Below are positions 1 through 57,011 of a stretch of 57,011 bases of DNA, in pieces. Source of the DNA: Escherichia phage vB_EcoM_fHy-Eco03; the sequence record MW602648.1. One strand, 5' to 3'. The notes beneath the pieces were generated by a model. The model searched no databases. It saw only the letters and a list, made by a program, of their open reading frames with translations, and was not told where the DNA came from. Numbering within the stretch: position 1 is the stretch's first letter; the number at the start of each line of letters is the position of its first letter. Made by a program: the position numbers and the translations under genes.

Positions 1-45
1 GGCGCAAAAAGAAAAAAAGCCGGATTGCTTTTGAAATTATAGACA

Positions 46-74
46 TTTACACAAGTCTTAAACTATGTTACAAT
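46..74 (+). promoter_or_regulatory. Sigma70-like promoter (TTTACA-N17-TGtTACAAT) in terminal repeat
   Basis: TTTACA at 46..51, 17-bp spacer, TACAAT at 69..74 preceded by TG at 66..67; about 40 bp upstream of the ATG at 114. Duplicate at 53358..53386. Confidence 0.5.
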
Positions 75-113
75 AGTTATTATTTACAATGTTAAGCACA
101 ATAGGAATTCATC

Positions 114-311
114 ATGAGCTATACTGACCAACAAATTGACACAGCAGCGGTTTTATTGGCACAAGAGGTAGATTTATTGCATTCTTTGATGAATGCTAGT
201 CATGATAGAGCTGAAACTATCAAGAATCAGATACGGGAAATTTGGTCTCAGCAGGTCAGCAACGGTGTATCTTTGGACTTTTTGGTGTGCCGCCTGAGAG
301 GTCAACTGTAA
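114..311 (+). CDS. Hypothetical protein (65 aa)
   Basis: ATG ORF with AGGAA 6 nt upstream; stop overlaps the next start (TAATG). Confidence 0.5.
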   Translation: MSYTDQQIDTAAVLLAQEVDLLHSLMNASHDRAETIKNQIREIWSQQVSNGVSLDFLVCRLRGQL

Positions 312-736
312 TGGTAAACATAAGAAGCAAGGGCCAGAACTTTGAGCGTAAAATGTCGAAAATGTTCAATGAATCGTTCGGGTTATCTACTGAGAGAAAT
401 CTCCAGCAATCTATAAACGGTGGAGATGATTTGATGGGAGTCCCGTTCTTCAGCGTTGAGCTCAAGAAGCACAACACCAAAGCTATCGGGACTTGGTGGA
501 AGCAATGTGCGGAATCAGCACGGCGTCAAAGCAAGATGCCAGTGCTAATCTATGAGATGCCACGGCAAAAGCCCACTGTCGTGATGAGAATTGAGGACGT
601 CAGTCAAGCTTTGGCTGAGGCACCACTGTTGCCAGCGGCTAGTAACAGGCTCTTTGTGGGCTTGGTGGAATTAACATGGGAACAATTTTGCCGGGTCTAC
701 AACTTTTACGTTGCGCCCGGCGTCGAGGTTGCTTAG
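311..736 (+). CDS. Putative PD-(D/E)xK-family nuclease (141 aa)
   Basis: ATG at 311 overlaps the upstream stop. Motif GGDDLMGVPFFSVELKK (D...ELK) resembles the PD-(D/E)xK nuclease signature. Track ORF 242..736 is the same frame with an upstream start. Confidence 0.4.
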   Translation: MVNIRSKGQNFERKMSKMFNESFGLSTERNLQQSINGGDDLMGVPFFSVELKKHNTKAIGTWWKQCAESARRQSKMPVLIYEMPRQKPTVVMRIEDVSQALAEAPLLPAASNRLFVGLVELTWEQFCRVYNFYVAPGVEVA

Positions 737-774
737 GTTGATGCTTGCATCAACACCAGTCAACTGTAGTTGAC
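737..774. terminator. Two adjacent hairpins between convergent genes
   Basis: GTTGATG-cttg-CATCAAC (737..754) and GTCAAC-tgta-GTTGAC (759..774), between the + gene ending at 736 and the - gene ending at 777; no clear U-run. Confidence 0.3.
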
Positions 775-776
775 AC

Positions 777-962
777 TTAGTCTTGTTTCAACTCATCGCA
801 GATAACGCGTTGATTTTGAGCTGGTACAAACCCGAGTTCGAGCAAAGTGTAAGGACTATCGGCGACGCATTGTTCAATGGTAGTCCATTCAGTTTTGGAT
901 TCAATAATTTTGTAACTACAATCATGAGTAGCCACACATGTTGCCAGGATTAAGCCAATCAC
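777..962 (-). CDS. Hypothetical protein (61 aa, GTG start)
   Basis: GTG start overlaps the upstream stop (GTGA); GAAGGAG Shine-Dalgarno upstream. Confidence 0.45.
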   Translation of the reverse strand: MIGLILATCVATHDCSYKIIESKTEWTTIEQCVADSPYTLLELGFVPAQNQRVICDELKQD

Positions 963-1138
963 AAGTAATCTCCTTCAACCAGAAACTCAAACAATTGGTT
1001 GTAAACGTTGCAACCCTTAGCGAAAGAGCTTTCAGCAGGTTTACCATCGCGGACGATCATCATATATTCACCGCCATGAATATCCACCCAGTATTGCATG
1101 CCACCCTTGACAGGGTTACGTTGTAAGAATTTAAACAT
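959..1138 (-). CDS. Hypothetical protein (59 aa), absent from the ORF track
   Basis: Hand-translated: MFKFLQRNPVKGG...VEGDYL. AAGGAG 7 nt upstream of the ATG; start overlaps the upstream stop (TAATG) and stop overlaps the downstream GTG. Confidence 0.5.
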   Translation of the reverse strand: MFKFLQRNPVKGGMQYWVDIHGGEYMMIVRDGKPAESSFAKGCNVYNQLFEFLVEGDYL

Positions 1139-1383
1139 TATTTGCTCCTTACTCCAAGTTTATTCAATAACCACACTGTCATGTCAACCCAGGTTAACGG
1201 TACAGTTTTCGGGGGTTGATAAGACCAGCACTTTCCAGCTCTTTCCGCAATTTCTTCGCGCCTTGCCGCTTGGCGTAATACTGCATCGTCAGAAGTGCCG
1301 GCAGAAAAAATATCGGCAATACCAGATAAATCGCCTCGATGAACACGTCCAGCAAGTTCATGCAGTTGCTCCTCAGAAAACAT
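1138..1383 (-). CDS. Hypothetical protein (81 aa)
   Basis: ATG start overlaps the stop of the upstream small ORF (ATGTTTTCTGA); part of the coupled leftward array. Confidence 0.5.
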   Translation of the reverse strand: MFSEEQLHELAGRVHRGDLSGIADIFSAGTSDDAVLRQAARREEIAERAGKCWSYQPPKTVPLTWVDMTVWLLNKLGVRSK

Positions 1384-1492
1384 AAGACAACACCATTAGA
1401 ATGATGATAAAGACAGCAACGGCTTTCGCCATGCCACGAGATTCATTATACACCGGATTTTCAGTGGTGTACTCAACAACATGCTTTTTCAT
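1373..1492 (-). CDS. Small hydrophobic protein (39 aa), absent from the ORF track
   Basis: Hand-translated: MKKHVVEYTTENPVYNESRGMAKAVAVFIIILMVLSYVF. GGAGG Shine-Dalgarno upstream; hydrophobic C-terminal half suggests a membrane segment. Confidence 0.45.
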   Translation of the reverse strand: MKKHVVEYTTENPVYNESRGMAKAVAVFIIILMVLSYVF

Positions 1493-1549
1493 ACAACCTC
1501 CAGTGTGAGAAATATCAATTGATGGCACCCGCAGATGCCATCTCAGATA

Positions 1550-2122
1550 TTACTCGCCTTCAGTCTCAGATTTTTCTTCAGTCTGAGGTGCTGCGGCTTC
1601 GTAGACCGTCTTACCATCAGTGATTTTACCGGATTTAACATCGTTACGGTAATAACTCATGTAAGACTGTACAACACGTTTTGATTTAACATCATCTTCA
1701 GCCATTTCACAGGCTTTCATGGCATCCGCAAGAGCGAGTTTTGAATCGTCTTTGTCTGCCAAGTTGTAATCTTTGAAGACCGCGTAACAAGTATCTTTGG
1801 TACTCGGTCCTGAAGATTTACGAGTACAACCAGTTGAACCGGAACGACTAGCTTTCTTCACTTCAACATGCTCAACCTCAAGACTTTCAAGTGCCTTATA
1901 CAAAGCAGGCACCAGAACATCCTTGCTGTCTTTGTGGGTGACAGATGCTTCATCATCAAGACTTTTAATCATCTTGACCAGTTGAGCATTTTGGAACTCT
2001 TTGAGAGCGCCTTTCTCAACAACGATGCAACTCATCATGCCTTCCATTGACAGACCATCTTTGATGCCTTCAACAGAAAAAGCGGAAGTTAAGTAAACAT
2101 ACTGAGTGATAGAATTTTCCAT
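1550..2122 (-). CDS. Hypothetical early protein (190 aa)
   Basis: Long ORF with AAGAGGA Shine-Dalgarno upstream; largest ORF in the terminal repeat. Confidence 0.6.
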   Translation of the reverse strand: MENSITQYVYLTSAFSVEGIKDGLSMEGMMSCIVVEKGALKEFQNAQLVKMIKSLDDEASVTHKDSKDVLVPALYKALESLEVEHVEVKKASRSGSTGCTRKSSGPSTKDTCYAVFKDYNLADKDDSKLALADAMKACEMAEDDVKSKRVVQSYMSYYRNDVKSGKITDGKTVYEAAAPQTEEKSETEGE

Positions 2123-2252
2123 GATTTTGTCCTCTTGTTTGTGGTTGACATCATTATAATGTCATGACTTCAGTTGTTTGTACATCTCAAATCACACATT
2201 TTTGTGCAATTTTTATCATGCGGTACGAATTATACCGCATTGTAAAAATTAC

Positions 2253-2453
2253 TCAAGAAATAATTACCTCAGTAACTACTACAGTGTTAGCAGTCACTAA
2301 TGTCAAAACTTTACCAGCTTTTGACCTCACAGCTTTCAACCGTAATTGTGACTGTGTGTAATTATTCCACTCTTCATCACTGAGCACGGTCCTGGTAACT
2401 TCAGGTCGTTCATCTTTGCCAAGCTTCACTACTGTAACTTTGATTAATGGCAT
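2253..2453 (-). CDS. Hypothetical protein (66 aa)
   Basis: ORF packed 4 nt after the upstream gene. Confidence 0.45.
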   Translation of the reverse strand: MPLIKVTVVKLGKDERPEVTRTVLSDEEWNNYTQSQLRLKAVRSKAGKVLTLVTANTVVVTEVIIS

Positions 2454-2456
2454 TGC

Positions 2457-2684
2457 TTAAACCTCAAATTTTGATTCGTCATATTCAGGGTCAGTCACAT
2501 CACGAGTGACACAATTTTGGAGTGCAGTCCAGTATTTTTGGACTTCAGCACCCTCCATGTATAGTGTCCAACCGTGATAGTAACCCTCGAAACTATTCCA
2601 GGTCCGTTCCCAAATCTTTCCGTCTTCGAGCTTATACTCAGTTGGTCTTGAGTCAAACTCACGGATAGTTGTGAATGTTACCAT
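2457..2684 (-). CDS. Hypothetical protein (75 aa)
   Basis: ORF in the coupled leftward array. Confidence 0.45.
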   Translation of the reverse strand: MVTFTTIREFDSRPTEYKLEDGKIWERTWNSFEGYYHGWTLYMEGAEVQKYWTALQNCVTRDVTDPEYDESKFEV

Positions 2685-2753
2685 GCGTTGTTACGCCTCT
2701 GTTGAATAATTTCAATCATGAACTATCACAACTTTGATAGTTCATTGTTGAAA

Positions 2754-2933
2754 CTATTGTAACTTTGTACTAATTTGAATTGTCAATCTAAACTCTTCAA
2801 GTAAGTTATCAATGTTGGATTTATCTTCCACAGCGGTAGAAATTTGATCACTTACAATTTGAGCATTTGACTCAAGAAGTTCAATCAAATGTGTCAATTC
2901 GTCTGCTGTCAATGTCAATTCTTTCATCATCAT
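2754..2933 (-). CDS. Hypothetical acidic protein (59 aa), absent from the ORF track
   Basis: Hand-translated: MMMKELTLTADELTHLIELLESNAQIV... Start overlaps the stop of the upstream ORF (ATGATGA). Confidence 0.4.
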   Translation of the reverse strand: MMMKELTLTADELTHLIELLESNAQIVSDQISTAVEDKSNIDNLLEEFRLTIQISTKLQ

Positions 2934-3100
2934 TCTCCTGAGTTAAATTGTGTGTCAATTTCAATAACTTTGGAACGTACATATTCCAGACAGTCATCAT
3001 AATCGTATGAAGTGTAACTCGGCATTGGAGAATCCAACCCTTCGTTAACATTCCATTCACCTTCATTAACATCAAACCAGATGATTAATTGAGTATGCAT
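2930..3100 (-). CDS. Hypothetical protein (56 aa), absent from the ORF track
   Basis: Hand-translated: MHTQLIIWFDVNEGEWNVNEGLDSPMPSYTSYDYDDCLEYVRSKVIEIDTQFNSGE. AGGAGT Shine-Dalgarno 8 nt upstream of the ATG. Confidence 0.45.
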   Translation of the reverse strand: MHTQLIIWFDVNEGEWNVNEGLDSPMPSYTSYDYDDCLEYVRSKVIEIDTQFNSGE

Positions 3101-3270
3101 TGTTATTACTCCTGTGTTAAGTTGTTTCAGGTGAGACTACTAAACTACTAATAGTCTCTGGATGAAATAACTTCACAGAGAAACAAAACATGTACCAAAT
3201 TGTTAAAGAGCAAAAGACACCATTGACCATCTACCAGATGTGTCTGTTGACTGGTTAAGTACTAACTACA

Positions 3271-3462
3271 CTAAGTAACTACATGCATCCTCCTGAACCG
3301 TTTCTGTGTCAAGTTGTTCAACACATTCAATAAATACATTATGTCAAAGTCCCTGTTGGTTGTACACAATAGAAGTGCAAGTTTGTGCAAGCTTTTAGAA
3401 ATGATAATCATCTGCGGTTGATAGTGATTCTCGTATGCAATTGATATAGTAACGCTCGTCAC
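3271..3462 (-). CDS. Hypothetical protein (GTG start, uncertain)
   Basis: Track ORF; its 5' end overlaps repeat element A, so the start is uncertain. Confidence 0.3.
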   Translation of the reverse strand: MTSVTISIAYENHYQPQMIIISKSLHKLALLLCTTNRDFDIMYLLNVLNNLTQKRFRRMHVVT

Positions 3463-3545
3463 TACTCAGTGTGAAACAGTCGACGGGGGTAAACGTCACA
3501 CACCGGTGCTATATTAGTTCCCCGGCGCAATTTTTATAAAAAATA
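3440..3545. repeat. Imperfect direct repeat element A (about 100 bp)
   Basis: TTGATATAGTAACGCTCGTCACTACTCAGTGTGAAACAGTCGACGGGGGTAAACGTCACACACCGGTGCTATATTAGTTCCCCGGCGCAATTTTTAT aligns with element B 173 bp downstream. Confidence 0.6.
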
Positions 3546-3612
3546 CAATTTCGTTTGTAATCGTAGACATACGGTATAGTTGCGGCCCGGTACCGTCACG
3601 GTGAGTTGTGAT

Positions 3613-3720
3613 TACGATTGTAATGATAACGCACGTTACTATTCACTCTGAAGGGGTGCCGGGGGGTAATTGTCACCTAGGGGTGTTAATTTAAGCCCCG
3701 GCAAATTTTTTATTTTTTTC
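3613..3720. repeat. Imperfect direct repeat element B, spanning the terminal-repeat boundary
   Basis: TTGTAATGATAACGCACGTTACTATTCACTCTGAAGGGGTGCCGGGGGGTAATTGTCACCTAGGGGTGTTAATTTAAGCCCCGGCAAATTTTTTAT; the repeat boundary (3699/3700) falls inside it at CCCC|GGC. Confidence 0.6.
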
Positions 3721-37912: not shown

Positions 37913-38514
37913 TATACATCCATCTCCATTTGTCCGCCTTTGGTCTGGTGCCACTCGACCACTTTATGAATGTCAGGTGCTGTCCAGCCTTCTGGCTTAA
38001 CGATGTCCTGACATGATTTGTGTTTGCTATCGCTTGCATCAGGTTTAGCACGTTCTTTCGCCATGTTGGCTTTTTGTACTTCGTCCCATGCTTCATCGAA
38101 TGGCCAGTTGTTATTAGCACACCATACGAAGATGTGATTAACCAGGCTTGCAAGGTGCTTGCAGTGAGTTGCTTCATCGTCAGTAAAATAGGCACGAAGC
38201 TCTTTTGCATTGAAGCGGTTCATGAATGAACATGGCTCAATGCCAGGCTGTACAGGATAATCGAAGTCATTGGTAAACCAGTGAACTTCATCGTACAGAT
38301 ACAGTGTACCAACAGCGATATAAACTGTATCAACCAGTGCATCCAGGAATTTACCCTTGTCATTTTCGTCCAAAGCTTCCTGGATTTCGTCTAGCTCTTC
38401 TACCAGACGGTCGTAGCGAAGTTTGAATTCTGGTTTACCACCCATGCTAAGTGGCTTGAGGTCAAACTTATTATGGAAAGCGATAACATCGCTTGCAGCT
38501 TTACTGAAATGCAT
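37912..38514 (-). CDS. MazG-like nucleoside triphosphate pyrophosphohydrolase
   Basis: All-alpha NTP-PPase motif EELDEIQEA...D; coupled to the thymidylate-synthase-family gene. Confidence 0.55.
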   Translation of the reverse strand: MHFSKAASDVIAFHNKFDLKPLSMGGKPEFKLRYDRLVEELDEIQEALDENDKGKFLDALVDTVYIAVGTLYLYDEVHWFTNDFDYPVQPGIEPCSFMNRFNAKELRAYFTDDEATHCKHLASLVNHIFVWCANNNWPFDEAWDEVQKANMAKERAKPDASDSKHKSCQDIVKPEGWTAPDIHKVVEWHQTKGGQMEMDV

Positions 38515-38899
38515 TGCGGAACTCCTCGTTCATCATGTTGATATACTTGCGCTTAAGACTTAAACTTTTAATATTGCTTTCAATCATATTGCGGCGGCGT
38601 TCACGCTCTTCAGTAGTACCCACAAGAGGGTGGACGAAGAGGCCTGAACGGTTGATTGATTTTACGTATGGCATTTTGAATTTAATCTCAGCCACTGCCT
38701 TATCGAACTTGGCCGATACTTCGCGGGTAAAGAATACGGAGTTGAGCTCTTGTTCTACGATACGGGTATGGTGAACAACTTCTTCAAACAGGGAAGATGG
38801 CAGATAGTCAGGGTTTGTGCCGTGCGTAAAGATGAGTTGACCTTCCAGACGCAGTTTCCAGATGCGGTATAATGATTCGGATAATCTTTGGATATTCAT
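38501..38899 (-). CDS. Hypothetical protein (132 aa)
   Basis: ORF overlapping the MazG start. Confidence 0.4.
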   Translation of the reverse strand: MNIQRLSESLYRIWKLRLEGQLIFTHGTNPDYLPSSLFEEVVHHTRIVEQELNSVFFTREVSAKFDKAVAEIKFKMPYVKSINRSGLFVHPLVGTTEERERRRNMIESNIKSLSLKRKYINMMNEEFRNAFQ

Positions 38900-38960
38900 G
38901 CTTCGCTCCTCAAAAAGATAACTTATTATACTACACCACTCTCTATCAGTAAAGCACTTT

Positions 38961-39000
38961 TTTATAAAAAGAAAAAGGACCTGTGGTCAGCAGGTCCTTT
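38961..39000 (-). terminator. Rho-independent terminator (minus strand)
   Basis: 10-bp stem AAAGGACCTG / CAGGTCCTTT (38974..38983 / 38991..39000) followed on the minus strand by UUUUUCUUUUU. Confidence 0.7.
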
Positions 39001-39487
39001 TGGATGTCAACGTAACAAGGATGGTGTTGCATGATGTCCCGAAGCGCGAGCTGAAGACACTTGAGTTGACTCTAACGGGAAAGGAGAGCATTCACACTGT
39101 GAGTTGCCGAAAAACCCGAAAGAGCCAACTAAACTGTTTTCAGTGACCGCCCTTCAAGCAGATTCCAACCGGTGGTCCATGGTAGCGAAGCACGTTTTGC
39201 CGGTCATACAGAACGCCTGAATCCAACAGGCAAGGGCATTTACCTAATCTCGGTCAGCGAGCAGACTCGAACTGCATTAAGTGTGACGCTTCAGCGCCTG
39301 AGTTATTGTGGATAACCTGCCATCCCGCGAGGATGTCAAAAAGGAAATGCCAAAGCGCCACACTTAATGCTACATTCAACTGAGCACCCTCACAAAACCA
39401 ACGCACCAGGCATGATGAAAAGGAGATGTAAAGTAAGGATACTCATTGAATGCACCTCCGAAGAGGTGCGTTCGTGATCAGCGCCGA
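39001..39487 (-). ncRNA. Candidate structured noncoding RNA or cis-element (ORF-free region)
   Basis: About 490 bp with no ORF of 60 aa or more in any frame and only trivial short ORFs; bounded by a UUCG-tetraloop hairpin (39452..39469) and the terminator at 38961..39000; lies inside a densely coded leftward operon. Confidence 0.3.
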
Positions 39488-39964
39488 TTATTCTGCGTAG
39501 GTGTTTTCACCGTCAGTATCGGTAGAACCAGCGGCCAACTTAGCAGCTTCAGCTTTAGCAGCTTCTGCTTTCTGGCGAGCTTTTTCAGCACGCTCTTCAG
39601 CTTTTTTGATTTGCTCAGCAGCTTTCTGCTCAGCTTTTTCAGCTTTGATGCGTGCACGCTCTTCAGCTTTACGCTGTTTTTCAGCAGCTTTAGCAGCATC
39701 GCGTTCTGCTTTAGCTGTATCAACGCGCTTAGCCAGAACCTTACCAGTGGCTTTACGCCAGTAGGTCAGCTGAGAAGAAACGGTACCGCGCGACATTTCG
39801 GTCTCTTTGGTTACGACGTCCATCACATCGGAGCTTGACTTACCAGCTTCGTGAGCTTTGTCAGCCATGTCCCAAACGTAACGTGCACCAGTACCAGCTG
39901 CCGGGTACAGAACACCGTTTACTTCTTCTTTACCAGTTGCAAAAGTCAGTTTAGATTCGCTCAT
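39488..39964 (-). CDS. Lys/Ala/Glu-rich low-complexity protein (158 aa)
   Basis: C-terminal half is a charged A/K/E repeat (AKAERDAAKAAEKQRKAEERARIKAEKAEQKAAEQIKKAEERAEKARQKAEAAKAEAAK). Confidence 0.5.
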   Translation of the reverse strand: MSESKLTFATGKEEVNGVLYPAAGTGARYVWDMADKAHEAGKSSSDVMDVVTKETEMSRGTVSSQLTYWRKATGKVLAKRVDTAKAERDAAKAAEKQRKAEERARIKAEKAEQKAAEQIKKAEERAEKARQKAEAAKAEAAKLAAGSTDTDGENTYAE

Positions 39965-40074
39965 TTTAAATTCCTCTATTAGTCCGCAGGGCTATTAATT
40001 CGTCATCACGAGAGTAAGTATATAGCACTATAAGATTTATGTACACACCTTTTTTAAACTTTTTTCATACGCGT

Positions 40075-53203: not shown

Positions 53204-53357
53204 TATATAAAAGATAGAGAGTATTTAAAACAAGTACTTAGGCATCCTTATTCATGTAATCCGGTTATATGTATTATATAATTATCAGATTGGATAAGAA
53301 AAAGTTATTGCCGGCGCAAAAAGAAAAAAAGCCGGATTGCTTTTGAAATTATAGACA

Positions 53358-53386
53358 TTTACACAAGTCTTAAACTATGTTACAAT
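53358..53386 (+). promoter_or_regulatory. Copy of the terminal-repeat promoter (TTTACA-N17-TGtTACAAT)
   Basis: Duplicate of 46..74. Confidence 0.5.
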
Positions 53387-53425
53387 AGTTATTATTTACA
53401 ATGTTAAGCACAATAGGAATTCATC

Positions 53426-53623
53426 ATGAGCTATACTGACCAACAAATTGACACAGCAGCGGTTTTATTGGCACAAGAGGTAGATTTATTGCATTCTTTG
53501 ATGAATGCTAGTCATGATAGAGCTGAAACTATCAAGAATCAGATACGGGAAATTTGGTCTCAGCAGGTCAGCAACGGTGTATCTTTGGACTTTTTGGTGT
53601 GCCGCCTGAGAGGTCAACTGTAA
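53426..53623 (+). CDS. Hypothetical protein (duplicate of 114..311)
   Basis: Identical copy in the right terminal repeat. Confidence 0.5.
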   Translation: MSYTDQQIDTAAVLLAQEVDLLHSLMNASHDRAETIKNQIREIWSQQVSNGVSLDFLVCRLRGQL

Positions 53624-54048
53624 TGGTAAACATAAGAAGCAAGGGCCAGAACTTTGAGCGTAAAATGTCGAAAATGTTCAATGAATCGTTCGGGTTATCT
53701 ACTGAGAGAAATCTCCAGCAATCTATAAACGGTGGAGATGATTTGATGGGAGTCCCGTTCTTCAGCGTTGAGCTCAAGAAGCACAACACCAAAGCTATCG
53801 GGACTTGGTGGAAGCAATGTGCGGAATCAGCACGGCGTCAAAGCAAGATGCCAGTGCTAATCTATGAGATGCCACGGCAAAAGCCCACTGTCGTGATGAG
53901 AATTGAGGACGTCAGTCAAGCTTTGGCTGAGGCACCACTGTTGCCAGCGGCTAGTAACAGGCTCTTTGTGGGCTTGGTGGAATTAACATGGGAACAATTT
54001 TGCCGGGTCTACAACTTTTACGTTGCGCCCGGCGTCGAGGTTGCTTAG
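53623..54048 (+). CDS. Putative PD-(D/E)xK-family nuclease (duplicate of 311..736)
   Basis: Identical copy in the right terminal repeat. Confidence 0.4.
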   Translation: MVNIRSKGQNFERKMSKMFNESFGLSTERNLQQSINGGDDLMGVPFFSVELKKHNTKAIGTWWKQCAESARRQSKMPVLIYEMPRQKPTVVMRIEDVSQALAEAPLLPAASNRLFVGLVELTWEQFCRVYNFYVAPGVEVA

Positions 54049-54088
54049 GTTGATGCTTGCATCAACACCAGTCAACTGTAGTTGACAC

Positions 54089-54274
54089 TTAGTCTTGTTT
54101 CAACTCATCGCAGATAACGCGTTGATTTTGAGCTGGTACAAACCCGAGTTCGAGCAAAGTGTAAGGACTATCGGCGACGCATTGTTCAATGGTAGTCCAT
54201 TCAGTTTTGGATTCAATAATTTTGTAACTACAATCATGAGTAGCCACACATGTTGCCAGGATTAAGCCAATCAC
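54089..54274 (-). CDS. Hypothetical protein (duplicate of 777..962)
   Basis: Identical copy in the right terminal repeat. Confidence 0.45.
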   Translation of the reverse strand: MIGLILATCVATHDCSYKIIESKTEWTTIEQCVADSPYTLLELGFVPAQNQRVICDELKQD

Positions 54275-54450
54275 AAGTAATCTCCTTCAACCAGAAACTC
54301 AAACAATTGGTTGTAAACGTTGCAACCCTTAGCGAAAGAGCTTTCAGCAGGTTTACCATCGCGGACGATCATCATATATTCACCGCCATGAATATCCACC
54401 CAGTATTGCATGCCACCCTTGACAGGGTTACGTTGTAAGAATTTAAACAT
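54271..54450 (-). CDS. Hypothetical protein (duplicate of 959..1138)
   Basis: Identical copy in the right terminal repeat. Confidence 0.5.
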   Translation of the reverse strand: MFKFLQRNPVKGGMQYWVDIHGGEYMMIVRDGKPAESSFAKGCNVYNQLFEFLVEGDYL

Positions 54451-54695
54451 TATTTGCTCCTTACTCCAAGTTTATTCAATAACCACACTGTCATGTCAAC
54501 CCAGGTTAACGGTACAGTTTTCGGGGGTTGATAAGACCAGCACTTTCCAGCTCTTTCCGCAATTTCTTCGCGCCTTGCCGCTTGGCGTAATACTGCATCG
54601 TCAGAAGTGCCGGCAGAAAAAATATCGGCAATACCAGATAAATCGCCTCGATGAACACGTCCAGCAAGTTCATGCAGTTGCTCCTCAGAAAACAT
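54450..54695 (-). CDS. Hypothetical protein (duplicate of 1138..1383)
   Basis: Identical copy in the right terminal repeat. Confidence 0.5.
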   Translation of the reverse strand: MFSEEQLHELAGRVHRGDLSGIADIFSAGTSDDAVLRQAARREEIAERAGKCWSYQPPKTVPLTWVDMTVWLLNKLGVRSK

Positions 54696-54804
54696 AAGAC
54701 AACACCATTAGAATGATGATAAAGACAGCAACGGCTTTCGCCATGCCACGAGATTCATTATACACCGGATTTTCAGTGGTGTACTCAACAACATGCTTTT
54801 TCAT
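54685..54804 (-). CDS. Small hydrophobic protein (duplicate of 1373..1492)
   Basis: Identical copy in the right terminal repeat. Confidence 0.45.
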   Translation of the reverse strand: MKKHVVEYTTENPVYNESRGMAKAVAVFIIILMVLSYVF

Positions 54805-54861
54805 ACAACCTCCAGTGTGAGAAATATCAATTGATGGCACCCGCAGATGCCATCTCAGATA

Positions 54862-55434
54862 TTACTCGCCTTCAGTCTCAGATTTTTCTTCAGTCTGAGG
54901 TGCTGCGGCTTCGTAGACCGTCTTACCATCAGTGATTTTACCGGATTTAACATCGTTACGGTAATAACTCATGTAAGACTGTACAACACGTTTTGATTTA
55001 ACATCATCTTCAGCCATTTCACAGGCTTTCATGGCATCCGCAAGAGCGAGTTTTGAATCGTCTTTGTCTGCCAAGTTGTAATCTTTGAAGACCGCGTAAC
55101 AAGTATCTTTGGTACTCGGTCCTGAAGATTTACGAGTACAACCAGTTGAACCGGAACGACTAGCTTTCTTCACTTCAACATGCTCAACCTCAAGACTTTC
55201 AAGTGCCTTATACAAAGCAGGCACCAGAACATCCTTGCTGTCTTTGTGGGTGACAGATGCTTCATCATCAAGACTTTTAATCATCTTGACCAGTTGAGCA
55301 TTTTGGAACTCTTTGAGAGCGCCTTTCTCAACAACGATGCAACTCATCATGCCTTCCATTGACAGACCATCTTTGATGCCTTCAACAGAAAAAGCGGAAG
55401 TTAAGTAAACATACTGAGTGATAGAATTTTCCAT
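54862..55434 (-). CDS. Hypothetical early protein (duplicate of 1550..2122)
   Basis: Identical copy in the right terminal repeat. Confidence 0.6.
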   Translation of the reverse strand: MENSITQYVYLTSAFSVEGIKDGLSMEGMMSCIVVEKGALKEFQNAQLVKMIKSLDDEASVTHKDSKDVLVPALYKALESLEVEHVEVKKASRSGSTGCTRKSSGPSTKDTCYAVFKDYNLADKDDSKLALADAMKACEMAEDDVKSKRVVQSYMSYYRNDVKSGKITDGKTVYEAAAPQTEEKSETEGE

Positions 55435-55564
55435 GATTTTGTCCTCTTGTTTGTGGTTGACATCATTATAATGTCATGACTTCAGTTGTTTGTACATCTC
55501 AAATCACACATTTTTGTGCAATTTTTATCATGCGGTACGAATTATACCGCATTGTAAAAATTAC

Positions 55565-55765
55565 TCAAGAAATAATTACCTCAGTAACTACTACAGTGTT
55601 AGCAGTCACTAATGTCAAAACTTTACCAGCTTTTGACCTCACAGCTTTCAACCGTAATTGTGACTGTGTGTAATTATTCCACTCTTCATCACTGAGCACG
55701 GTCCTGGTAACTTCAGGTCGTTCATCTTTGCCAAGCTTCACTACTGTAACTTTGATTAATGGCAT
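55565..55765 (-). CDS. Hypothetical protein (duplicate of 2253..2453)
   Basis: Identical copy in the right terminal repeat. Confidence 0.45.
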   Translation of the reverse strand: MPLIKVTVVKLGKDERPEVTRTVLSDEEWNNYTQSQLRLKAVRSKAGKVLTLVTANTVVVTEVIIS

Positions 55766-55768
55766 TGC

Positions 55769-55996
55769 TTAAACCTCAAATTTTGATTCGTCATATTCAG
55801 GGTCAGTCACATCACGAGTGACACAATTTTGGAGTGCAGTCCAGTATTTTTGGACTTCAGCACCCTCCATGTATAGTGTCCAACCGTGATAGTAACCCTC
55901 GAAACTATTCCAGGTCCGTTCCCAAATCTTTCCGTCTTCGAGCTTATACTCAGTTGGTCTTGAGTCAAACTCACGGATAGTTGTGAATGTTACCAT
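55769..55996 (-). CDS. Hypothetical protein (duplicate of 2457..2684)
   Basis: Identical copy in the right terminal repeat. Confidence 0.45.
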   Translation of the reverse strand: MVTFTTIREFDSRPTEYKLEDGKIWERTWNSFEGYYHGWTLYMEGAEVQKYWTALQNCVTRDVTDPEYDESKFEV

Positions 55997-56065
55997 GCGT
56001 TGTTACGCCTCTGTTGAATAATTTCAATCATGAACTATCACAACTTTGATAGTTCATTGTTGAAA

Positions 56066-56245
56066 CTATTGTAACTTTGTACTAATTTGAATTGTCAATC
56101 TAAACTCTTCAAGTAAGTTATCAATGTTGGATTTATCTTCCACAGCGGTAGAAATTTGATCACTTACAATTTGAGCATTTGACTCAAGAAGTTCAATCAA
56201 ATGTGTCAATTCGTCTGCTGTCAATGTCAATTCTTTCATCATCAT
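56066..56245 (-). CDS. Hypothetical protein (duplicate of 2754..2933)
   Basis: Identical copy in the right terminal repeat. Confidence 0.4.
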   Translation of the reverse strand: MMMKELTLTADELTHLIELLESNAQIVSDQISTAVEDKSNIDNLLEEFRLTIQISTKLQ

Positions 56246-56412
56246 TCTCCTGAGTTAAATTGTGTGTCAATTTCAATAACTTTGGAACGTACATATTCCA
56301 GACAGTCATCATAATCGTATGAAGTGTAACTCGGCATTGGAGAATCCAACCCTTCGTTAACATTCCATTCACCTTCATTAACATCAAACCAGATGATTAA
56401 TTGAGTATGCAT
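56242..56412 (-). CDS. Hypothetical protein (duplicate of 2930..3100)
   Basis: Identical copy in the right terminal repeat. Confidence 0.45.
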   Translation of the reverse strand: MHTQLIIWFDVNEGEWNVNEGLDSPMPSYTSYDYDDCLEYVRSKVIEIDTQFNSGE

Positions 56413-56582
56413 TGTTATTACTCCTGTGTTAAGTTGTTTCAGGTGAGACTACTAAACTACTAATAGTCTCTGGATGAAATAACTTCACAGAGAAACAAAA
56501 CATGTACCAAATTGTTAAAGAGCAAAAGACACCATTGACCATCTACCAGATGTGTCTGTTGACTGGTTAAGTACTAACTACA

Positions 56583-56774
56583 CTAAGTAACTACATGCAT
56601 CCTCCTGAACCGTTTCTGTGTCAAGTTGTTCAACACATTCAATAAATACATTATGTCAAAGTCCCTGTTGGTTGTACACAATAGAAGTGCAAGTTTGTGC
56701 AAGCTTTTAGAAATGATAATCATCTGCGGTTGATAGTGATTCTCGTATGCAATTGATATAGTAACGCTCGTCAC
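56583..56774 (-). CDS. Hypothetical protein (duplicate of 3271..3462)
   Basis: Identical copy in the right terminal repeat. Confidence 0.3.
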   Translation of the reverse strand: MTSVTISIAYENHYQPQMIIISKSLHKLALLLCTTNRDFDIMYLLNVLNNLTQKRFRRMHVVT

Positions 56775-57011
56775 TACTCAGTGTGAAACAGTCGACGGGG
56801 GTAAACGTCACACACCGGTGCTATATTAGTTCCCCGGCGCAATTTTTATAAAAAATACAATTTCGTTTGTAATCGTAGACATACGGTATAGTTGCGGCCC
56901 GGTACCGTCACGGTGAGTTGTGATTACGATTGTAATGATAACGCACGTTACTATTCACTCTGAAGGGGTGCCGGGGGGTAATTGTCACCTAGGGGTGTTA
57001 ATTTAAGCCCC

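Follow-up and report, generated by a model that had tools for sequence, protein, structure and literature searches.

GOLLD and ROOL are large phage-borne RNAs of 500-800 nucleotides (nt) with several domains, and they are often found beside transfer RNA (tRNA) genes. Phage T4 encodes the small stable RNAs rnaC and rnaD (species 1 and 2) at the end of its tRNA cluster, and both are matured together with the cluster. The YrlA RNA (Rfam RF02553) contains a permuted tRNA-like domain, where a T-arm, a capped acceptor-like hairpin and a D-arm follow each other and are closed by a helix (Chen et al., 2014, PMC4201824). Here we describe an intergenic locus in a stretch of 57,011 nt (the window) from Escherichia phage vB_EcoM_fHy-Eco03 (sequence record MW602648.1). 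Judged from comparison of sequences, its minus strand very probably holds the gene of a structured RNA that belongs to a family found in unrelated phages, and we consider it fairly probable that the product is an RNA of about 520 nt which acts in trans by means of a tRNA-like core. The genome is of the Rosemountvirus-like Salmonella myophage type, with 99.1% identity to phage vB_SEnST11_KE25 over the query stretch, and the papers on these phages report just 'no tRNA genes'.

An earlier inspection of the letters alone (the sequence-only reading) had proposed that a region of 490 bp without long open reading frames (ORFs) is a structured RNA, a replication origin or a regulatory site. The first of these proposals is strongly supported by compensatory base changes, by G-U pairs that exist on the minus strand only, by the lack of a conserved reading frame and by a core common to unrelated phages. 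The proposal of an origin is not supported, and the tRNA-like family had not been recognized.

A tRNA-Like Core

The conserved part of the RNA is a core of 132 nt (Table 1). It opens with T1, whose loop matches the tRNA T-loop (G53 U54 U55 C56 R57 A58 N59 U60 C61) and whose stem covaries across the family (GCAG/CUGC, GGUGG/CCACC, GCCGG/CCGGC, UCCG/CGGA and others). Members of the family have a 5' T-arm with the loop UUCRANU followed by UCG-N6-GAGAU-N2-4-GGURAA, and this arrangement is present in the window at 39238..39275 (minus). The long-range helices Pa and Pb can be formed as well, leaving the GG strand as a bulge, and a second T-arm-like hairpin (P2) is followed by a second GGU motif, GGUUGGAAU, despite the deviant loop of P2.

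Both hairpins in the 3' half have changed their stems in a compensatory manner. The stem of P2 is GAGG/CCUC in BP63-like phages, CUGGG/CCCAG in ZCSE2-like phages and CCGG/CCGG in L010, a relative from IMG/VR. That of P3' has become GGGU/ACCC in BP63-like phages and GGCAGU/ACUGCC in L010, and the sequence of its loop is retained. The covariance model R1 was built solely from metagenomic long-form members (see below) and contains no sequence of the window lineage, while its seeds were gathered with a pattern derived from the 5' motif of the window. In the 57-kb window it has a single match, located on the minus strand at 39185..39286 (31.6 bits, E = 4e-7).

Some further pairings were considered and rejected. 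A local acceptor-like hairpin, CUCG-CUGAC-CGAG, can be drawn, but its loop bases covary with the distal strand of Pa instead. A minihelix of CAGUGA and UCGCUG around T1 occurs only in the window lineage and not throughout the family, and the AAUG leader lacks the consistent complementarity to the bases following Pa that a general helix would require. A hammerhead-like reading of CUGACCGAG fails since the hexamer varies. Part of the P3' loop, UGCUUCGCU (39184..39192), is perfectly complementary over 9 nt to the spacer and start codon of the downstream 132-aa gene, AGCGAAGCA (38899..38907). Such a pairing, of the type used by small regulatory RNAs, is not conserved in KM, the BP63-like phages or L010 and is probably due to chance.

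Table 1. Features of the locus and its flanks, in positions of the window; the RNA elements are written as read on the minus strand.
Feature	Position	Strand	Sequence or remark
132-nt core	39144..39275	minus	T1, UCG-CUGACC-GAGAU, J1, Pb, P2, P3', J2, Pb', Pa'
T1	39261..39275	minus	tRNA-type T-arm hairpin GCAG-UUCGAGU-CUGC, AAUG leader before it
Near-invariant strand	39238..39260	minus	UCG-CUGACC-GAGAU-UA-GGUAAA-U
J1	within 39238..39260	minus	GAGAUUAGGUAAAU, D-loop-like bulge
Pa	39252..39255 with 39145..39148	minus	GACC with GGUC
Pb	39234..39237 with 39149..39152	minus	GCCC with GGGC
P2	39215..39231	minus	Second T-arm-like hairpin, GCCUG-UUGGAUU-CAGGC
P3'	39168..39204	minus	Lineage-specific stem ACCGG/CCGGU around conserved 27-nt loop CAAAACGUGCUUCGCUACCAUGGACCA
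J2	39153..39167	minus	UGGAAUCUGCUUGAA
H1	39452..39469	minus	Hairpin GCACCUC-UUCG-GAGGUGC, read directly; conserved in all lineages
P0 domain	39373..39453	minus	Helix of ~20 bp; RNAfold, compensatory changes
P0, 5' strand	39433..39453	minus	GCAUUCAAUGAGUAUCCUUAC
P0, 3' strand	39373..39393	minus	GUGAGGGUGCUCAGUUGAAUG, continues into AAUG leader of core
P0, apical region	39398..39411	minus	Conserved GCCUGGUGCGUUGG in CU-rich region
Module A	39276..39368	minus	93-nt domain closed by stem AUUAAGUGUGGCGC/GCGUCACACUUAAU; 18-nt inverted repeat
Module A, inner hairpin	39321..39335	minus	CAUCC-UCGCG-GGAUG
Module A, inner hairpin	39302..39316	minus	GUUAU-CCACA-AUAAC, contains DnaA-box-like TTATCCACA
3' domain	39002..39143	minus	RNAfold only; other lineages carry different sequence here
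3' domain, hairpin	39133..39144	minus	ACUG-AAAA-CAGU
3' domain, long irregular stem-loop	39121..39129 with 39065..39073	minus	GUUGGCUCU pairs with AGAGUCAAC
Intrinsic terminator	38966..39001	minus	AAAAGGACCUG-CUGACCA-CAGGUCCUUUU, then UCUUUUU; terminator scan
Promoter-like site	38925..38953	minus	TTTACT-17-TATAAT, 10/12 consensus matches; conserved in all lineages
Candidate promoter	40017..40045	minus	TGTACA-17-TATACT, upstream of 158-aa gene; promoter scan, 9/12 matches
Intergenic gap	38900..39487		588 bp between called genes
158-aa gene	39488..39964	minus	Upstream flank; stop codon 39488..39490
132-aa gene	38501..38899	minus	Downstream flank
Longest ORF within 39001..39445	39254..39406	minus	50 aa, GTG start
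Mechanical ORF	39446..39838	plus	Right edge only; antisense/out of frame inside 158-aa gene
Mechanical ORF	39478..39723	minus	Right edge only; antisense/out of frame inside 158-aa gene

Distribution and Architecture of the Family

Members were collected by exact scans of IMG/VR and metagenomes with a pattern consisting of a T-arm hairpin and then UCGCUGACCGAGAU..GGUAAA. In IMG/VR the exact pattern is present in unrelated contigs of 29-412 kb, and a relaxed pattern was found in at least 120 metagenomic stretches. A third pattern, applied to IMG/VR with UCG and GAG left free, gave 27 further real members, all but one of which retain UCG and GAG. Altogether the family comprises at least 146 unique copies in 183 viral or metagenomic loci, and the GC content of these loci spans 0.26-0.69. 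Among the phages in GenBank, BLAST detected the core only in the lineage of Rosemountvirus and Loughboroughvirus. A divergent copy is carried by the cultured Ruegeria phage RpAliso, where R1 scores 37.6 bits and all the patterns miss it. A scan of 185,579 representative bacterial genomes with a pattern free of the T-arm, which is informative for the CUGACC subtype only, returned 22 chance matches in coding sequence and one phage-like contig.

The members fall into a long and a short form. As seen in an alignment of 30 long-form members (A1), the long form starts with the leader, T1 (loop UUCRANU), UCG-YU, the 5' strand of Pa, GAGAUYnGGURAAGGA and P2 (GGUUCGAnUCC). These are followed by a tetraloop hairpin (P3), UAAGGSAGUG, the hairpin P4 with GGUA in its loop, one purine, the 3' strand of Pa, UGACAG and finally P5, which has the loop GAAAGA. 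RNAalifold predicts 29 pairs for A1, and 24 of them are accompanied by double changes. The fraction of paired cells in A1 is 92.1%, compared to 66.4% in shuffled alignments, and the covariation score is 0.647 against 0.179 for shuffles; none of 500 shuffles reached it, and slid controls gave about 0.09. For Pa, a test was made in which the 3' strand was defined independently of pairing, as the 4 nt preceding the conserved UGACAG. With this definition Pa is complete, having all four pairs, in 49 of 52 long-form members, and 12 different helix sequences are used, while shuffling the partners gave a mean of 13.3. Two further pairs of columns covary in the long form, and they point to a pseudoknot of 2 bp between the linker and the P4 loop.

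In the short form, to which the window belongs, Pb is stacked directly on Pa, and GAGAU..GGUAAA makes up a bulge of 13-14 nt. At least four consecutive Pb pairs can be formed in 24 of 26 short-form members, the window lineage included, while shuffles gave a mean of 6.8 and a maximum of 13. The second T-loop-like hairpin is found in 116 of the 146 unique members listed even though none of the search patterns contained it, and a second GGU motif, equally absent from the patterns, is conserved too.

Two hairpins resembling T-arms, the association with tRNA arrays in other phages and the degenerate P2 loop of the window could suggest that these sequences are decaying tRNA genes, that is non-functional remnants of a former array. 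Pseudogenes would decay independently of each other, however, and what is found in very distant phages is one and the same architecture that is not that of a tRNA, with UCG-N6-GAGAU, Pa and Pb and neither an acceptor nor an anticodon arm. We therefore find such remnants very unlikely. Since compensatory changes keep the fold across distant phages, it must be under purifying selection, and the comparison shows that what is selected in the core is, as far as sequences can tell, a fold with two tRNA-type T-arms and two GG motifs.

The 3' hairpin of the long form, UGACAG-CCGG-GAAAGA-CCGG-CA, also occurs alone. Copies of 22-25 nt with 100% identity are situated in unannotated intergenic DNA of unrelated cultured phages, namely phage mEp390 (L184 1501-1522), Cronobacter phage ESP2949-1 (L185 1501-1524), Stenotrophomonas phage Pokken (L186 1501-1522) and Acinetobacter phage Alexa (L187 1501-1524). 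No tRNA-like core adjoins these solitary copies. The motif was also found in five of 5,426 E. coli genomes, and it looks like an independent, unnamed conserved phage element.

The Complete Predicted RNA and Its Boundaries

The sequence-only reading had placed the region without ORFs at 490 bp. This part stands, while the full gap between the called genes is larger (Table 1). It is the largest gap in the genome as judged from the 99% identical record PP856724, when two tiny 'hypothetical' coding sequences (CDS) are disregarded, and the runner-up is about 315 bp. The position of the gap is kept in Rosemountvirus (678 bp in BP63 and yarpen), in Loughboroughvirus (about 600 bp in ZCSE2 and S144) and in L010. 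The claim that the region is balanced in GC rather than AT-rich also holds (0.497 for 39001..39487, compared to 0.451 for the whole window).

The minus strand of 518 nt folds with -199.5 kcal/mol (RNAfold), while shuffled sequences give -157.6 +/- 7.0 kcal/mol (z = -6.0), and none of 100 shuffles were as good. The fold of the plus strand is less stable by 22.6 kcal/mol. Six G-U pairs in the minus-strand helices, four of them in P0, would be A-C mismatches on the plus strand. When four lineages were compared, including Rosemountvirus, Loughboroughvirus and L010, compensatory changes were seen in P0, module A, P2, P3', Pb and the terminator stem. The folding and covariation that had been suggested as a check on the RNA thus came out in its favour.

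H1 was found exactly where it had been claimed to be. It begins 18 nt past the stop codon of the 158-aa gene, and its loop is UACG in BP63-like phages and L010. It is not an intrinsic terminator, since no U-tract comes after the hairpin; an end-protecting or processing hairpin would be a plausible role. P0 follows, where GAGU/GCUC of the window is replaced by GGAC/GUCC in BP63 and ZCSE2 and by GGGC/GCCC in SE4. The distal half of P0 has a wholly different sequence in L010, which is still complementary (CACUUAAGC/GUUUGAGUG).

Module A is restricted to this phage lineage. Its closing stem shows four compensatory pairs relative to ZCSE2-like phages, and its inner hairpin CAUCC/GGAUG has become CACCC/GGGUG in BP63-like phages. 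In the window it precedes T1, in BP63 and ZCSE2 it comes behind the core (about 120-215 nt past the T-loop in the loci L002, L003 and L005), and L010 lacks it. From these placements it looks like a movable RNA module. The sequence of the 3' domain was found only in KE25, KE26 and KM. Taken together, the relocation of module A and the replacement of the 3' domain provide a clean natural example of modular evolution in a large RNA.

The terminator that had been placed at 38961..39000 is present within slightly different limits (Table 1). The scan gives a stem of 11 bp with a 7-nt loop (39001..38973), followed by UCUUUUUAUA. The combination of a G+C-rich hairpin and a U-tract on the transcribed strand identifies 38966..39001, and this part only, as an intrinsic terminator. 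In other lineages the stem is GGACCAG/CUGGUCC. The terminator probably marks the 3' end of the RNA. The promoter-like site at 38925..38953, whose counterpart is annotated as a promoter in BP63 and S144, lies outside the RNA as a boundary marker and would serve the next transcription unit, from the 132-aa gene onwards. The location inside a replication operon that had been proposed was therefore not borne out, as the stretch closes one transcription unit at the terminator and a conserved promoter starts the next. A conserved promoter immediately before H1 was not seen. Transcription probably begins at the candidate promoter at 40017..40045, at a place equivalent to that of an annotated promoter in BP63, and the RNA would then make up the 3' part of the transcript.

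The C-terminal half of the 158-aa protein is repetitive and rich in Lys, Ala and Glu, and this low complexity makes the DNA of its gene yield spurious BLAST matches to unrelated phages. Pfam gave no match for the 158-aa, 132-aa or 73-aa neighbour proteins. Positions 1..3699 of the window are repeated exactly at 53313..57011, so that the unique genome is 53,312 bp. A long terminal repeat, a concatemer junction and an assembly overlap are all possible explanations of these 3,699 repeated bases.

Coding Capacity and Replication Origin

No ORF of at least 60 aa had been seen in the region, and within 39001..39445 the longest one in any frame is indeed only 50 aa (Table 1). The absence of long ORFs is in itself a weak argument, as it is the default for non-coding DNA, while the folding energy and the comparative evidence exceed chance. 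Several records have two to four tiny automatically annotated CDS in the gap, which could mean that small proteins with unusual start codons are encoded there. The called CDS differ, however, from record to record. By tblastn all seven small ORFs of the window were found to be interrupted, through stops or frameshifts, in all the lineages other than the nearest relative, and the 50-aa ORF is split between frames already in KM (94.6% DNA identity). The search for small proteins that had been suggested thus found no ORF conserved beyond the nearest relative, and the probability of such proteins is practically negligible.

It could alternatively be imagined that the region works as DNA, either as a replication origin (based on a DnaA box or an R-loop) or as a recombination site. 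It is located in the replication gene module, and it has one perfect TTATCCACA that is conserved in the lineages having module A. Still, the window contains a single box, while 3.3 would be expected by chance for TTATNCACA, and this box is part of a hairpin whose stem tolerates a U-G change in a module that is absent in L010. The region has no iterons or family of direct repeats beyond chance pairs and no AT-rich unwinding region. What characterizes an origin, DnaA boxes in a cluster or iterons beside an AT-rich unwinding element, was thus not found. The turning points of the GC skew are located elsewhere. G-U pairs and strand-specific motifs also favour an RNA, and an element acting at the DNA level is extremely unlikely.

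Genomic Context and Possible Function

In 39 of the 146 loci listed, a tRNA or transfer-messenger RNA (tmRNA) on the same strand ends 1-4 nt before the leader, and in 15 loci a tRNA starts about 100-130 nt after T1. The single tmRNA among the former is a phage tmRNA (tag AKVVNMTPRATMRIAA) that ends 1 nt before the family member (L108 100-413 of the excerpt). Behind the stand-alone copies lies either a U-tract or a hairpin terminator. The neighbouring proteins are ordinary phage proteins, such as small terminase, RecT, DUF3127 and DNA-modification enzymes, and no neighbour recurs generally among the loci examined.

Some of the loci have additional RNA features. The GUGAUU subtype has about 11 loci where a tRNA-like sequence with a 6-nt anticodon loop lies upstream, and ARAGORN cannot assign this sequence (L074 and L128, 343-413 of the excerpt). 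An abiF RNA motif (RF03085, 60.7 bits) is located about 200 nt from one family member on the same strand (L121 42-78, minus). Synechococcus phage B3 (L236 1200-1225) has AAUG-GUGG-UUCGACU-CCAC, which equals T1 of the jumbo-phage members, and it is followed by a pseudo-tRNA and not by UCG..GAGAU. This hairpin may be a recombinant or a remnant.

Phage rivia (MT074438; L007 ~1715-1730) has naturally lost about 145 nt, stretching from J1 into module A, so that ..GAGAUUUGGU is joined directly to GGUUAUCCACAG. The deletion corresponds to 39150..39245 of the window and a part of module A, and Pb, P2, the 3' strand of Pa and half of module A are lost. As rivia is viable with this deletion, it represents a natural knock-out of the core, and the RNA is dispensable for plaque formation.

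The tolerance of the rivia deletion would also be understandable if the region was purely a 3' untranslated region acting in cis, with roles in termination, in protecting the mRNA from 3' exonucleases and in insulating two transcription units, and had no function in trans. The region has a gene on one side and a terminator, immediately followed by a promoter, on the other, H1 lies right behind the stop codon, and the lineage-specific parts (module A and the 3' domain) come and go. Yet about 40 nt are sufficient for a terminator, which does not call for 520 nt with conserved T-loops. The 5' half of the core is nearly base for base common to unrelated phages, where it is found stand-alone or in tRNA arrays, and the copies are not tied to a particular upstream gene. 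A function limited to cis is therefore considered unlikely, although less so than the other alternatives discussed here.

An accessory role directed at a conserved factor that recognizes tRNA would fit the wide host range, the lack of a partner gene, the dispensability of the RNA in the laboratory and its residence among phage tRNA genes. We lean slightly towards mimicry of the tRNA elbow as the working principle of the trans-acting RNA. It would be transcribed as the 3' part of the transcript of the 158-aa gene and end at 38966..39001. Pa and Pb would stack as long-range helices, leaving the GG-containing strand as a D-loop-like bulge, and each T-loop might dock on a GG motif in the same way as in the tRNA elbow. 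This would give an RNA that displays one or two elbows but lacks both an acceptor end and an anticodon. Where a phage has a tRNA array, the RNA might be excised by the nucleases that trim the neighbouring tRNAs, while in the window phage, which has no tRNA gene according to ARAGORN and no tRNA-related enzyme according to the annotation of the 99% identical genome, the core could be released from the larger RNA or work within it. In trans the RNA would then occupy a conserved host or defence factor that recognizes the elbow or T-arm of tRNA. Our preferred guess, a tentative one, is a decoy for tRNA-directed defence nucleases; binding of T-arm enzymes, RNase P or RNase Z is an alternative.

Several points weigh against this mechanism. 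All the steps leading from a molecule that folds to one that acts as a mimic are inferred. Docking of T-loops on GG motifs is proposed by analogy with tRNA, tmRNA and YrlA, and it is beyond the reach of covariation, as the bases that would take part do not vary. The search patterns included T1 and J1, and the conservation of these two elements is therefore partly by construction. The loop of P2 in the window (UUGGAUU) departs from the T-loop consensus, having a G at the equivalent of C56 where its relatives have UUCGAUU. The model leaves the near-invariant UCG..GAGAU strand unexplained. Finally, rivia lacks most of the core and was still isolated as a viable phage; this fits an accessory or anti-defence role, but equally well a weak or redundant one.

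A wider and likewise speculative possibility is that double tRNA-elbow RNAs form a phage-wide class with the core as its founding member, and that they would work by mimicry of shape only. Such RNAs might either counteract tRNA-directed immunity or capture a universal tRNA-handling machine in phages of many host phyla, the conceivable targets being RNase P, T-arm modification enzymes and the elbow-binding sites of the ribosome. They would be carried next to or instead of tRNA genes, and in the present lineage the double elbow would have become part of a modular RNA of about 520 nt, with further domains that are exchanged between genera.

The family occurs in phages of hosts with 26%-69% GC, it is outside Rfam 15 and it is not called by tRNA finders. 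This points to general phage-host biology around tRNA recognition, and the RNA is a concrete candidate for either an RNA-based counter-measure to tRNA-targeting defences or a manipulator of tRNA processing. Cultured carriers exist in the form of Rosemountvirus and Loughboroughvirus phages of Salmonella and E. coli, together with the natural rivia deletion and the Ruegeria phage RpAliso. The largest 'empty' region of these therapeutic-candidate phages is thereby given an explanation, and the tiny ORFs annotated there in many GenBank records are seen to be spurious.

Comparison with Known RNAs

The scan of Rfam that had been proposed as a check matched no family. No family of Rfam 15 was found for the window, for the region at E <= 10 or for 40 other loci, where only tRNAs and unrelated weak matches were obtained. 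A search of the literature by sequence string and topic gave no description of the family, which may be among the unnamed candidates in a catalogue of 10,006 viral motifs (PMC10690425).

The core is not a tRNA. ARAGORN found no tRNA gene in the window, and there is no match to the Rfam tRNA model (RF00005) even at E = 10. The core has no 5' partner for an acceptor strand, and neither a cloverleaf nor an NCCA end is present. It has in common with tmRNA (RF00023) a T-arm and a GG-containing D-loop analogue without a stem, and both RNAs are encoded by some phages. In the new family, however, the T-arm precedes the D-like strand, and an acceptor stem ending in CCA, a tag reading frame and the pseudoknot ring are all lacking. 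ARAGORN and Rfam were both negative for tmRNA.

YrlA is closer in topology. The host genus of the window phage encodes both YrlA and Rsr, its Ro60 orthologue, and one may ask if the phage RNA is Y-RNA-like, using a permuted tRNA-like domain to recruit or titrate Rsr and its partners in the manner of YrlA in Salmonella. The inner domain of the long form, with P2, P3 and P4 inside Pa and one purine after them, has the same order and thus shares the consensus topology of YrlA (PMC4201824), and the size of about 100-140 nt and the canonical T-loop sequence are similar too. The new family differs by an extra 5' T-arm (T1) and the near-invariant UCG-N6-GAGAU..GGURAA strand. Its D-like hairpin is preceded by a 10-nt linker with a 2-bp pseudoknot, and a GAAAGA hairpin is frequently present on the 3' side. 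Short-form members, including that of the window, lack the D-arm hairpin, and the window has P2 and the stem-loop P3'. The ends of the element are hairpins (T1 and P5) instead of the long terminal stem that binds Ro. The YrlA model, which has a gathering threshold of 69 bits, gave no match at E <= 10 to the window region or to short-form or long-form members. No Ro60 product is found in the 99% identical annotated genome or beside other copies, and the loci of the family span 26-69% GC, while to our knowledge most bacterial hosts are without Ro60. A Y-RNA-like function is distinctly improbable.

The new family resembles rnaC and rnaD of T4 in its residence at tRNA clusters. rnaC ends in a T-arm, and rnaD begins with AAUG directly after tRNA-Arg. 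Homology was considered and rejected, as R1 gives only partial matches of 16-18 bits that lean on the T-arms, and the T4 RNAs have neither the UCG-N6-GAGAU..GGURAA strand nor the helices Pa and Pb. GOLLD and ROOL (RF03087) gave no match, either in a scan of the whole window at the gathering thresholds or in a scan of 38850..39600 at E <= 10. The window RNA, with its length of about 520 nt and its swappable domains, falls in the same size class as these. It differs from them in that only the 132-nt core is conserved and the remainder is lineage-specific. We regard it as belonging to a new family, uncatalogued in Rfam 15, within the known kind of tRNA-mimicking non-coding RNAs.

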